A stretch of DNA of 64,000 nt from a phage. The position numbers were made by a program, and so were the translations under genes. The DNA lies in the sequence record PZ452608.1; one strand, 5' to 3'. Numbering within the stretch: the stretch's first letter is position 1; each line of letters begins with the position of its first letter. Under the pieces are notes generated by a model. That model saw only the letters and a list, made by a program, of their open reading frames with translations, made no database searches and had not been told where the DNA came from. This document shows positions 27,318-28,928 of the stretch, piece after piece.

Positions 27318-27398
27318 GGCTACTGCCATCCTTCCATACCAAACCAAACCTTACAAGACCCAACCACACATCACTGTACTCAACAGAACTCTACCCTA
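27318..27398. repeat. G-poor CA-rich low-complexity tract (A1)
   Basis: ggctactgccatccttccataccaaaccaaaccttacaagacccaaccacacatcac...; almost no G on + strand. Confidence 0.6.
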
Positions 27399-27476
27399 CC
27401 TCATTAAAAGACCCTCTTAAAGACCTTTTAAAAAGGTAAGTCTCATTTTAATGTAGCTGAGACTAACTACCCATAC
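27399..27476. repeat. Direct repeat copy 1 (58 nt identical core 27419-27476)
   Basis: aaagaccttttaaaaaggtaagtctcattttaatgtagctgagactaactacccatac is identical to 28812-28869; preceded by cctcattaaaagaccctctt. Confidence 0.8.
27430..27467 (-). terminator. Intrinsic terminator on - strand (module hairpin plus U5)
   Basis: On - strand GUUAGUCUCA-loop-UGAGACUUAC followed by CUUUUUAAAAGG; lies about 130 nt downstream of the 27597 stop. Confidence 0.5.
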
Positions 27477-27529
27477 CAGACCCTACCTTACCAAACCAGA
27501 CCTCACCCTACCCCACCATACCGTATACT
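27468..27529. repeat. G-poor CA-rich tract (A2)
   Basis: tacccataccagaccctaccttaccaaaccagacctcaccctaccccaccataccgtatactac. Confidence 0.6.
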
Positions 27530-27569
27530 ACCTCATTAAAAGACCTTGTTTAAAGACCTTTTAATGAGG
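27530..27569. repeat. Perfect 12-bp-stem hairpin (AAAGACC repeat unit 2)
   Basis: CCTCATTAAAAG-accttgtttaaagac-CTTTTAATGAGG; contains two AAAGACC words 13 bp apart. Confidence 0.6.
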
Positions 27570-27588
27570 AGCCTCCGAAGAGGCTACC
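27568..27588 (-). other. GC hairpin with UUCG-type loop immediately 3-prime of the 27597 stop, no U-tract
   Basis: GGAGCCTC-CGAA-GAGGCT on + strand, same hairpin family as the window terminators but followed by CUCAUUAAAAGG on - strand. Confidence 0.45.
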
Positions 27589-27596
27589 TAGTCAAC

Positions 27597-28037
27597 TTAG
27601 AAAGGTTTTCTGCGTTGCTTGTTAATGTTAGCTTTCATAGCAGCTAAATGGTTTTGCTGTTCAATTAGTCGTGAACGTTCTTGGTGGCTAAGTGCCATAG
27701 TATTCACATTCTCAATTGCTTGAGTGGCTTGCTTTAAAGCTCGACCAATCTTACCAGACATTTTGCGTTTTGCAATAGTTGCTTGATGCTTAGGTTCAAC
27801 CACACGATAACCAACACCCATTGAAGCAACCAGATAAATCTTCTCTTCTTTAAGAAGCTTCTCAATAAACTTCTCAAGTCGGTTTAGACGTGTAAGTGCA
27901 TAAGCCTTCATTTCATCTTCGTACTTAACAATGTCACCTTGATAAGTTGGCTTCACAATACCTAAGAAGGTGTCCATCTCAGAATGTGATACAGTGTCAC
28001 CGTAACTAAACTTTGCTGCTAATGCTTTTGTATTCAT
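27597..28037 (-). CDS. Hypothetical protein (cassette gene 2)
   Basis: 146 aa ORF, ATG start, basic C-terminus KANINKQRRKPF; stop 3 nt after cassette gene 1. Confidence 0.5.
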   Translation of the reverse strand: MNTKALAAKFSYGDTVSHSEMDTFLGIVKPTYQGDIVKYEDEMKAYALTRLNRLEKFIEKLLKEEKIYLVASMGVGYRVVEPKHQATIAKRKMSGKIGRALKQATQAIENVNTMALSHQERSRLIEQQNHLAAMKANINKQRRKPF

Positions 28038-28039
28038 AA

Positions 28040-28627
28040 TTAAACGTTACCTTCTGAAATAACTTCTACAGAAAAACGACCAAAGCGTGGACGCCAATCA
28101 CCTACACCACAAAGGTTACCAGCATTTTCCAGAACCATCAAGAGTTCTTCTTTGGTGATTTGCTCTTCATCGAACATCAAACCAAACTCTACAGACCAGT
28201 CACGGAAGATTGGACGGTAGCTCATAACTCGTGCTGTACCAATCTTAACAGACTTAGCATAGATAAAGTCTGGATTCTTCGCAAGTTCTTGTGGGTTTGC
28301 TGGACAATTCTTGATAGTCATTGGGAAGACTACATCTGTCAGCATAATGGCTCGGTCAATTACCTTACCAAGTTTGTTTAGTTTTGCACCAGACTTGATA
28401 CAAGCCTCAATCATCTCACCGTTCATAACAAAACCTAGTTGCTCATCGTAGTAACAAGAAGTTACCAGTTGGCTTTCTGCTAAGAGCGCATAGTCTTCGT
28501 CAGTCTTTTTACGCTTACTGGACAGAGACTTGTGATATTTTGTCAGAGGGTTTAATGGGTCTGACAGCGTATCGTTATGGCTCAGGAAAGGACGAGTACC
28601 AGTGATTTTGATATTTAACAGTTTCAT
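28040..28627 (-). CDS. Hypothetical protein (cassette gene 1)
   Basis: ATG at 28627 with GGAG RBS (track start 28642 is GTG); 195 aa, no recognisable motif. Confidence 0.5.
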
Positions 28628-28719
28628 AGCATTTAGCTCCACACTTTAGTTGATTGTTAAGTTGTTTGTAAAGAACCCTCAACAGAAGACTCTTTAGAAA
28701 CTTGGTAGATTTTTAACGT

Positions 28720-28790
28720 GGCTACTACCATCCACCCATACCGTGCCACACCACACCGGACCGTACCATGCCCAACCCTACTACACCAGA
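28720..28790. repeat. G-poor CA-rich tract (B1)
   Basis: ggctactaccatccacccataccgtgccacaccacaccggaccgtaccatgcccaaccctactacaccagacc; begins with same ggctactNccatcc as tract A1. Confidence 0.6.
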
Positions 28791-28869
28791 CCTTATTAAA
28801 AGACCCTCTCCAAAGACCTTTTAAAAAGGTAAGTCTCATTTTAATGTAGCTGAGACTAACTACCCATAC
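28791..28869. repeat. Direct repeat copy 2 (58 nt identical core 28812-28869)
   Basis: Identical to 27419-27476; preceded by cttattaaaagaccctctcc. Confidence 0.8.
28823..28860 (-). terminator. Intrinsic terminator / attenuator on - strand inside the leader of the cassette
   Basis: Same hairpin plus U5 as 27430-27467, about 200 nt upstream of the 28627 start codon and downstream of the candidate promoter at 28998-29025. Confidence 0.45.
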
Positions 28870-28928
28870 ATTACCGCACCATATTATACCCTACCCCACC
28901 ATACTTCACTGCACCGAGCCACGCATTA
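28861..28928. repeat. G-poor CA-rich tract (B2)
   Basis: tacccatacattaccgcaccatattataccctaccccaccatacttcactgcaccgagccacgcattaca. Confidence 0.6.

Follow-up and report, generated by a model that had tools for sequence, protein, structure and literature searches.

With a probability of about 95%, positions 27302-29025 of the stretch of phage DNA analysed here (record PZ452608.1, 64,000 nt, hereafter the window) make up a SUSP1-clade locus of the type II VIPR system (Viral Interference Programmable Repeat), and the four G-poor tracts within them are the guide regions of its vrRNAs. The DNA is that of Escherichia phage wV8, a member of Felixounavirus. VIPR, an RNA-guided DNA-silencing system that phages direct against rival mobile elements, was first described in two preprints of 2026, which report for SUSP1 expressed vrRNAs that co-purify with Vipr, a 1-nt-skip rule that holds both in vitro and in vivo, cryo-EM structures, and activity in silencing and in phage defence (bioRxiv 10.64898/2026.04.26.720920, 10.64898/2026.04.26.720927). 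The first-pass annotation had matched the tracts to no specific known element, a statement overtaken by these publications and by the protein encoded next to the tracts, which shares 98% of its residues with SUSP1 Vipr, whose structure has been solved. The wV8 tracts are of an already known kind, and their locus, which shows every defining feature of the system that can be read from sequence, is a member of the published SUSP1 clade, which comprises 13 loci (bioRxiv 10.64898/2026.04.26.720920, 10.64898/2026.04.26.720927). Neither preprint names wV8 in its main text.

Genes and layout of the locus

The central gene, vipr (28040..28627, minus strand), encodes a RAMP-family protein of 195 aa (wV8 gp95). 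A phmmer search matched it to PDB entry 36pp (chain 36pp_D, 'SUSP1 Vipr protein') with E = 7e-128, and 191 of its 195 residues (98%) are identical to those of SUSP1 Vipr, membership of the SUSP1 clade being defined by more than 90% identity to that protein. All 13 contact residues that we checked (H17, K33, R39, E71, M72, K82, G87, K88, R138, C173, D177, W178 and R179) are the same in the two proteins, and the residue given as T175 in the preprint is a V in both sequences. The accessory gene vap1 (27597..28037, minus strand; wV8 gp94, 146 aa) is nearly identical to the gene immediately downstream of vipr in SUSP1 (145/146 residues, 99%). The type II VIPR protein has been described as a minimal RAMP with an RRM core, a G-loop and a thumb, and vap1 as a gene that adjoins vipr in a minimal two-gene operon and boosts protection (bioRxiv 10.64898/2026.04.26.720920, 10.64898/2026.04.26.720927). 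Searches of gp93, gp94 and gp95 against Pfam, NCBIfam and PADLOC gave no informative match, and in PHROGs the three proteins matched families of unknown function and no others.

All elements of the locus lie on the minus strand, in the order promoter, vrRNA1, vrRNA2, vipr, vap1, vrRNA3, vrRNA4, so that two intergenic vrRNA genes stand upstream and two downstream of the vipr/vap1 pair. This agrees with the earlier suggestion that the relevant molecule is a G/U-rich RNA of the minus strand. A sigma-70 promoter (TTGACA-16-TATACT, 28998..29025, minus strand) was found by a consensus scan (11/12); it is predicted to drive vr1, vr2, vipr and vap1, and is identical to the sequence upstream of SUSP1 vrRNA1. 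Directly 3' of the vap1 stop codon, a GC-rich UUCG hairpin (27570..27585, minus strand), also conserved in SUSP1, can be read from the sequence. The locus ends at another hairpin, inverted repeat I1 (27255..27301, minus strand), overlapping a promoter-like site ahead of gp93 that was detected by consensus scan (27282..27254, minus strand). The surroundings are a replication gene module (ligase, polymerase, thymidylate synthase). A Rho rut site on a plus-strand RNA was also considered and rejected, since genes and promoter alike are read from the minus strand.

In the sequence record the tract region carries only a direct-repeat label, 'DR_4', and its neighbours are hypothetical proteins. The SUSP1 locus has the same synteny (ligase, vrRNA, vipr, vap1, vrRNAs, gp93), and shares with wV8 the promoter, the three types of vrRNA tail, the 5' hairpins and the class of satellite targeted. 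The two phages belong to different genera (wV8 to Felixounavirus, SUSP1 to Suspvirus) and differ in the placing of their vrRNAs, two upstream and two downstream in wV8 but one and three in SUSP1. Further, the guide sequences of all four wV8 vrRNAs differ from those of SUSP1, and the satellite sites targeted should therefore differ as well.

Repeat tracts, tails and hairpins

The tracts at 27318-27398, 27468-27529, 28720-28790 and 28861-28928 had been singled out for their lack of G on the plus strand, which the counts bear out (6/81, 3/62, 9/71 and 5/68, respectively); the first and third, as delimited there, also cover part of the vrRNA tails. On the minus strand each tract has a strict 5-nt period, NGTNN or YNNGG (GGYNN), over 11-13 units. 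This period is a real signal that the first-pass annotation had overlooked. Scored for phased GT over 10 pentamers, only these four places on either strand of the whole 64 kb attain 8-10; the score is at most 5 elsewhere, and its maximum in 50 locally shuffled sequences was 5-6. The tracts had also been called unlike the rest of the window, and by their phasing they are. Similar composition scattered through other intergenic regions had been proposed as the mark of a neutral mutational signature; the other G-poor or C-poor 60-nt windows, such as 17106-17173 and 34195-34280, turned out to be ordinary AT-rich sequence without phasing. We consider it almost inconceivable that the tracts arose as a neutral artefact of composition or through the decay of coding sequence, a reading in keeping with a record that offers nothing except its 'DR_4' label. 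Against it stand a phasing far above that of shuffled sequences and found nowhere else in the window, an architecture conserved across many phages while the NN positions vary, and the tail covariation and guide-target matches described below. The earlier view that the tracts do not look like decayed coding sequence thus holds, on the phasing and the tail covariation.

In the published vrRNAs, 9-16 YNNGG units with a conserved GGY and hypervariable NN stand in tandem, followed by a conserved 3' tail of ~40 nt that forms a pseudoknot after the last repeat; those of SUSP1 and P. fulva are small RNAs of ~100 nt that co-purify with Vipr, and SUSP1 vrRNA1 has been seen by sRNA-seq (bioRxiv 10.64898/2026.04.26.720920, 10.64898/2026.04.26.720927). 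Across 257 units from 21 vrRNAs of the clade, with tracts of 10-16 units, the Y position was a pyrimidine in 100% of cases, the first and last G positions were G in 81% and 98%, and the entropy at the two NN positions was 1.88 and 1.89 bits. The four wV8 guides, all on the minus strand, could be read as follows. The vrRNA1 guide (28864..28928) has 13 YNNGG units with the NN series AA GT TC GC GA AT GG AG AT AT GC AA AT, and the vrRNA2 guide (28736..28790) has 11, with CT GT AG TG AT AC CC GT GT AC AT. The vrRNA3 guide (27471..27530) comprises 12 units (AG AC AT GG AG GA CT TT AA AG CT AT), and that of vrRNA4 (27334..27398) again 13 (AG AG TC TG AC GA GT TG CT AA TT TT AT), seven of them canonical and six with a degenerate first G. 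In vr1, 8 of the 13 units are canonical YNNGG and the remainder degenerate, internal degeneracy being common in vrRNAs (bioRxiv 10.64898/2026.04.26.720920, 10.64898/2026.04.26.720927).

IMG/VR, searched by pattern alone for (GGTNN)x6+GGT, yielded more than 120 loci, of which about half, being simple tandem repeats such as GGTCG or GGTTG, were left out. At ~38 loci unrelated to wV8 a gp95 homologue adjoins the arrays and is encoded, with few exceptions, on their strand; because of this adjacency, the association between protein and repeat is established independently of the literature. It also bears on the reading that the tracts act as DNA, their strand asymmetry serving an R-loop-prone replication origin, a G-quadruplex (in DNA or RNA) or a recombination site. 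Such an element would fit a G-rich non-template strand lying 3' of a strong promoter within the replication gene module, and GG runs 3 nt apart could in principle make two-tetrad quadruplexes. However, across unrelated phages the arrays accompany vipr and not replication genes; strict 5-nt phasing, an invariant pyrimidine and a first G present in 81% of units are ill-suited to a quadruplex; and the cassette is absent from some Felixounaviruses, and is therefore not an essential origin. The tails and 5' hairpins, moreover, show G-U pairs and compensatory changes, as RNA structure would. We regard a DNA-level element as very improbable, and the recombination- or replication-associated role once suggested for the tracts found no support.

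Each guide of the VIPR locus is followed by a 32-nt tail, also on the minus strand. Those of vrRNA1 (28832..28863) and vrRNA3 (27439..27470) form a pseudoknot of type b, which in vrRNA1 pairs GTAG with CTAC and AGTCTCA with TGAGACT. The vrRNA2 tail (28704..28735), identical to that of SUSP1 vrRNA1, is of type a1 (GTGG/CCAC and GGTAG/CTACC), and its reverse complement contains ggctactaccatcc; the vrRNA4 tail (27302..27333) is of type a2 (AAGG/CCTT and GGCAG/CTGCC), with ggctactgccatcc in its reverse complement. The word that two of the tracts had been noted to share, ggctactNccatcc at 27318 and 28720, corresponds in reverse complement to a stretch of the vrRNA 3' tail. Among 12 distinct tails, 99.1% of cells were paired in the pseudoknot, against 31-43% in slid controls; eight of its nine pairs showed two-sided changes, and none of 500 shuffles reached the observed covariation score. 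Sequence covariation thus supports the conclusion that the 3' tails form a pseudoknot.

A covarying hairpin of 38-39 nt precedes each repeat tract on the same strand, at 28929..28967 for vr1 (-15.5 kcal/mol, z = -4.9), 28791..28829 for vr2, 27531..27569 for vr3 (-17.2 kcal/mol, z = -7.6) and 27399..27436 for vr4. The hairpin of vr1 would be a processing or boundary element. The number of cassettes differs among near-identical phages (2+2, 1+3, 2+3 and 2+1), and one contig without vipr retains a single hybrid vrRNA; given this variation and this hybrid, recombination at the vrRNA flanks may gain, lose and shuffle guides. As a tentative extension, which we think has rather less than an even chance of being right, the 5' hairpin may delimit or process the vrRNAs in general, such flank recombination may operate, orphan vrRNAs could load in trans onto the Vipr of a co-infecting phage, and the last TATGG unit may be a handle and not part of the guide. 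The main text of the preprints mentions neither the 38-39 nt 5' hairpin, nor the variation in cassette number, nor TATGG as a handle. Orphan vrRNAs occur in satellites too.

Predicted mechanism and guide targets

Because wV8 is nearly identical to SUSP1, including the promoter and the architecture, its vrRNAs are expected to be expressed and loaded onto Vipr. On the mechanism that the preprints established for SUSP1 (bioRxiv 10.64898/2026.04.26.720920, 10.64898/2026.04.26.720927), each transcript would be a small RNA of ~100 nt with 11-13 YNNGG units and a 3' pseudoknot cap, on which Vipr, one protomer per unit, would assemble into a right-handed helical filament hiding each GGY and exposing the NN dinucleotides. 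These would pair with double-stranded DNA and leave every third base of the target unread (an NNx code), and the resulting gapped R-loop triplex would block transcription; targeting would need no PAM and could use either DNA strand. By analogy with SUSP1, the wV8 locus should thus be capable of programmable dsDNA binding and transcriptional silencing. The earlier proposals for the RNA fare unequally here: a protein-binding platform it would be, but not an unstructured one, in view of the pseudoknot tail and the 5-nt guide code, and 'spacer regions of small RNAs' falls short of tracts that are themselves programmable guide RNAs.

The wV8 guides are predicted to aim at a satellite-phage island of ~12 kb in E. 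coli chromosomes, vr1 and vr2 at its tape-measure gene, vr4 at its large recombinase and vr3 at an upstream non-coding region. We searched 11 satellites sampled from 474 candidate satellite-bearing genomes, and all four guides matched islands (81-88% of NN bases) that lie in E. coli chromosomes, including those of O157:H7. The best match of vr1 covers 23 of 26 NN positions (88%) in the tape-measure gene of satellite L126 (O157:H7 strain E32511) and of three more sampled satellites (predicted target, for example, AAAGTATCCGCTGAAATGGGTAATATGATTGCTAAAGC). For vr2 it covers 19/22 (86%) in the same gene (satellites L135 and L136), for vr3 21/24 (88%) in non-coding sequence (L127, 8605-8639), and for vr4 21/26 (81%) in the large-recombinase gene (L133), with 20/26 in four others. 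The matches of vr1 and vr3 are stronger than those of vr2 and vr4, for each of which a simple binomial model gives E of about 1e-3, and none of the 11 sampled satellites contained a perfect match to any guide.

The 1-nt skip was needed for these matches: in the same 11 satellites, skips of 0, 2 or 3 nt gave best matches of only 15-18 NN, guides in shuffled order at most 17-19, and neither control exceeded 73-77% of NN positions. All 16 matches of at least 75% fell inside satellites, which account for 47% of the sampled bases. In every coding-sequence match of at least 80% the skipped bases are at codon position 3. The weaker vr2 matches (17/22), in which the skip base is at codon position 1, are probably not real targets. 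The SUSP1 guides, used as a positive control, matched the same satellite elements, SUSP1 vr3 having no target among the 11 sampled. Within the 64-kb window there was no self-target at 80% or above, the best self-match being 69-75%.

Relation to known systems and significance

The NN matches also weigh on another reading of the repeats, as a sponge or attenuator RNA (a TRAP-like ring-protein array or a CsrB-like decoy) that would titrate a protein. TRAP binds the trp leader RNA through 11 (G/U)AG triplets, which are spaced by 2-3 nt and wound around an 11-mer ring. VIPR resembles this arrangement in its ~11-13 short motifs with 2-nt variable spacers in single-stranded RNA, each bound by one subunit, and several copies of 11-13 evenly spaced short motifs on a transcribed strand are what a sponge would look like. 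However, the neighbouring protein is Vipr, whose RAMP-family fold differs from that of TRAP and which assembles as a helical filament and not as a ring; what the repeats conserve is GGY, neither (G/U)AG nor GGA; and the NN positions match external DNA under a spacing rule, which a sponge would not need. The spacers carry no information in TRAP and are the guide in VIPR, and where TRAP controls its own mRNA, VIPR is directed at foreign DNA. Searches of Pfam, NCBIfam and PADLOC gave no TRAP or CsrA family match for the flanking genes (nor, in Pfam, did their products match any family, TRAP, PF02081, included). The chance that the tracts are a sponge is therefore slight. Rfam gave no match at the gathering threshold over the whole window, vrRNAs being absent from release 15, and nothing relevant came from searching by keyword for proteins that bind pentanucleotides or GGU. 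TRAP-like arrays or sponges, G-quadruplexes and R-loop origins, as well as pairing with tRNA CCA ends or anti-Shine-Dalgarno sequences, had been dropped as candidates after gp95 matched the Vipr structure.

Class 1 CRISPR-Cas, in which Cas7 coats the crRNA, is like VIPR in that a RAMP/RRM-fold protein polymerises along a guide RNA, a thumb domain periodically flips bases, and a variable guide is joined to a conserved structured handle. VIPR differs in its non-contiguous guide, of which 2/5 of the RNA bases are read against 2/3 of the DNA bases, in being phage-encoded, and in lacking a repeat-spacer array, cas1/cas2 adaptation genes and a PAM; its outcome is a triplex R-loop with silencing, and that of Class 1 CRISPR-Cas is cleavage. 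Tested as a CRISPR array, the wV8 locus has a unit of 5 nt, not ~28-37 nt, its longer direct repeats being only the vrRNA flanks, and its flanking genes matched no Cas family in Pfam, NCBIfam or PADLOC. VIPR has been proposed to be older than CRISPR.

The tracts are unmentioned in the Felix O1 and wV8 genome papers and in the Bas63 PhageMaP paper. Here a functional element was found from raw sequence that is annotated in GenBank only as 'DR_4' beside hypothetical proteins; the biology it represents is of a kind that the 2026 preprints already cover. Phage wV8 is used for typing and biocontrol of E. coli O157:H7, and its four guides have now been decoded, with predicted targets in a satellite island that O157:H7 strains carry in their chromosome. 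During infection, the wV8 VIPR locus probably represses an element that parasitises or competes with the phage, a role that makes it relevant to the conflict between phages and satellites and to the performance of phages on satellite-bearing hosts.

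Phased pentamers in the four tracts

The window comes from Escherichia phage wV8 (Felixounavirus), and positions 26800-29300 are 100% identical to EU877232.1 58799-61299. All genes at ~24-34 kb lie on the minus strand, where two long intergenic regions around genes 95 (28040-28627) and 94 (27597-28037) hold all four tracts (27318-27398, 27468-27529, 28720-28790 and 28861-28928). GenBank labels the tracts only as direct repeat 'DR_4' and both genes as hypothetical. The first-pass annotation described the tracts as G-poor on the plus strand, which the sequence bears out, and missed that, read on the minus strand, they follow a strict 5-nt period of 11-13 NGTNN (equivalently YNNGG) units. 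The phased-GT score, taken over ten pentamers, reached 8-10 at the four tracts only (64 kb, both strands), did not exceed 5 elsewhere, and was 5-6 in locally shuffled sequence. Their composition had also been called unlike the rest of the window. Other G-poor windows are plain AT-rich sequence that lacks phasing. Since the score is unique to the four sites, shuffles score low and other G-poor windows are unphased, the signal is specific and far beyond chance.

We searched IMG/VR with the bare pattern (GGTNN)x6+GGT, without literature input, and found more than 120 loci, where we estimate, from the 21 specified bases and the collection size, a chance expectation well below one match. Simple tandem repeats make up about half; the others resemble wV8, with 9-19 phased units, variable NN and often many tracts in tandem. 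In ~38 of these wV8-like loci, unrelated to wV8, a homologue of the gene 95 product (gp95) adjoins the arrays (blastp identity 21-37%, E-values down to 1e-32), nearly always on the GGT-bearing strand and usually directly upstream. Protein and pentamer arrays thus form a conserved pair.

Identity of the locus

No match to gp95 was found in Pfam, NCBIfam or PADLOC, but gp95 matched PDB entry 36pp, 'SUSP1 Vipr protein', with E = 7e-128. VIPR (Viral Interference Programmable Repeat) is described in two 2026 preprints (bioRxiv 10.64898/2026.04.26.720920 and 10.64898/2026.04.26.720927) as having three components: Vipr, a minimal protein of the RAMP family; the accessory gene vap; and vrRNAs, in which 9-16 YNNGG repeats precede a conserved 3' tail that contains a pseudoknot. 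According to these preprints Vipr polymerises upon the vrRNA, one protomer per repeat, burying GGY and displaying the NN dinucleotides, which pair with double-stranded DNA, skipping every third target base, so that an R-loop triplex forms and transcription is silenced. The wV8 and SUSP1 Vipr proteins are identical at 191 of 195 residues, all 13 contact residues checked being kept, and the gene 94 product matches SUSP1 Vap1 at 145 of 146. Gene order is also that of SUSP1: ligase, vrRNA(s), vipr, vap1, vrRNAs, gp93. Because the preprint authors define the 'SUSP1 VIPR clade' by Vipr identity above 90%, wV8 falls within it. The wV8 element thus belongs, as a type II VIPR locus, to the published SUSP1 clade; the class is real and of interest, and the finding is already explained.

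Upstream of the first guide region, vr1, lies a strong sigma-70 promoter (TTGACA-16-TATACT) with the same sequence as that upstream of SUSP1 vrRNA1. Between it and the ligase gene is a 48-aa hydrophobic ORF (29032-29178, minus; phrog_22006, no assigned function). The mechanical ORF of vipr begins at a GTG five codons upstream (28628-28642); the ATG at 28627 yields a 195-aa product, in agreement with SUSP1 Vipr and the GenBank annotation. Where the structure preprint has T175, SUSP1 and wV8 both have V, pointing to a typo or a shift in the numbering.

Across 257 units from 21 vrRNAs (wV8, SUSP1, bumzen, tootiki and three IMG/VR contigs), position 1 is a pyrimidine in 100%, positions 2 and 3 have entropies of 1.88 and 1.89 bits, and positions 4 and 5 are G in 81% and 98%. 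The vrRNA tails fall into three sequence types, all compatible with one H-type pseudoknot, with 99.1% of cells paired and both-side changes in 8 of 9 pairs; slid controls were 31-43% paired, and zero shuffles equalled the observed covariation score. Four other readings of the tracts were weighed: a sponge or TRAP-like RNA, an origin of the G-quadruplex or R-loop kind, a site of recombination, and a neutral artefact of composition. Every one of them conflicts with at least one of five points: which protein accompanies the arrays, the information held in the NN positions, a variable first G beside an invariant pyrimidine, some related phages lacking the cassette, and RNA-type covariation.

Periodic architecture, protein identity, tail structure and locus organisation are direct observations in wV8. 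Its vrRNAs are presumably expressed and active; for the near-identical SUSP1 system others have shown expression, ribonucleoprotein formation, DNA binding, silencing, phage defence and structures (10.64898/2026.04.26.720920,.720927).

A hairpin of 38-39 nt, with G-U pairs, lies 5' of every repeat tract (28929-28967, 28791-28829, 27531-27569 and 27399-27436, minus). Two versions of its sequence exist (CACTTAAG... and CTCATTAAAAG...), with pairing kept in both. The hairpin is retained in SUSP1 and further relatives, is not discussed in the VIPR preprint main text, and may serve as a signal for processing or mark a boundary.

Predicted guide targets in E. coli satellite islands

Most natural targets of the SUSP1 clade lie in a satellite phage found in E. 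coli genomes (10.64898/2026.04.26.720920,.720927). Using as query the SUSP1 baseplate gene, which the same preprints report as common to phage and satellite, we found homologues in 474 of 5426 complete E. coli genomes, in ~12 kb islands where a tape-measure gene and a large serine recombinase are also found. Eleven islands were sampled and searched with the four wV8 guides under several skip rules. With a 1-nt skip, vr1 (28864-28928, minus) matched the tape-measure gene at 23/26 NN positions, compared with 17, 18 and 18 for skips of 0, 2 and 3 and a maximum of 19 for shuffled unit order. The same gene was matched by vr2 (28736-28790, minus) at 19/22 (16, 15 and 16; shuffled maximum 17), the upstream non-coding region by vr3 (27471-27530, minus) at 21/24 (17, 16 and 17; 18), and the large recombinase gene by vr4 (27334-27398, minus) at 21/26 (18, 18 and 17; 19). 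The matches are thus statistically supported and specific to the 1-nt skip. SUSP1 guides, as positive control, matched the same islands at 21/24, 27/30 and 20/22.

All 16 matches of at least 75% fell inside islands, which make up only 47% of the sampled DNA, and no wV8 guide reached 80% against the wV8 window. In every coding-sequence match of at least 80% the skipped bases lie on codon position 3, as reported for natural VIPR targets (10.64898/2026.04.26.720920,.720927). Mismatches cluster in the last guide unit, which is TATGG in nearly all vrRNAs of the clade (e.g. 28864-28868 and 27334-27338) and probably belongs to the handle, not the guide.

Eight genomes, O157:H7 strains among them, share an identical vr1 target segment, and O157:H7 is the wV8 host serotype; satellite repression would presumably benefit wV8. 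The islands occupy at least three insertion sites (a split DUF72 gene beside yecD, the yciI-tonB interval and the mdtG-lpxL interval), and in 3 of the 11 an IS element breaks the tape-measure gene targeted by vr1 and vr2.

Distribution of Vipr and solo vrRNAs

Vipr is encoded in 130 of 50,697 records of the phage collection, mostly annotated as a hypothetical protein. Identity is at least 90% in 118, from phages of the wV8/SUSP1 kind infecting Escherichia, Salmonella, Shigella and Citrobacter, and below 60% in 12, including Pseudomonas phage Medea1, Mycobacterium phage LittleE, Gordonia phage Trine and Listonella phage phiHSIC. Distant Vipr homologues also adjoin very large arrays: ~14 tandem vrRNA-like units, each ending in GGAATGGTTTAATGAATTTAATT (L023, 2206-3400), seven tracts of 9-13 units with 8-nt linkers (L013, 4588-5057), and two more (L012, 3330-5329; L101, 3227-4400). 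They probably represent other types of VIPR or of array architecture.

In a Felixounavirus-like IMG/VR contig (L032, 2657-2933) only 277 nt separate the ligase and gp93 homologues. This gap holds a single vrRNA, vr1-like in its 5' part and vr4-like in its tail, without vipr or vap1, and looks like a remnant of recombination between flanking vrRNA units. Two of the 11 satellite islands carry their own vrRNA without a vipr gene (L130, 5116-5200; L136, 3694-3773; both minus), with tails that are a further compensatory variant of the pseudoknot, in agreement with the preprint report that some satellites encode vrRNAs (10.64898/2026.04.26.720920,.720927).

Specific to this window are its four decoded guides and their predicted satellite targets, with side observations on 5' hairpins, cassette-number variation and solo vrRNAs.
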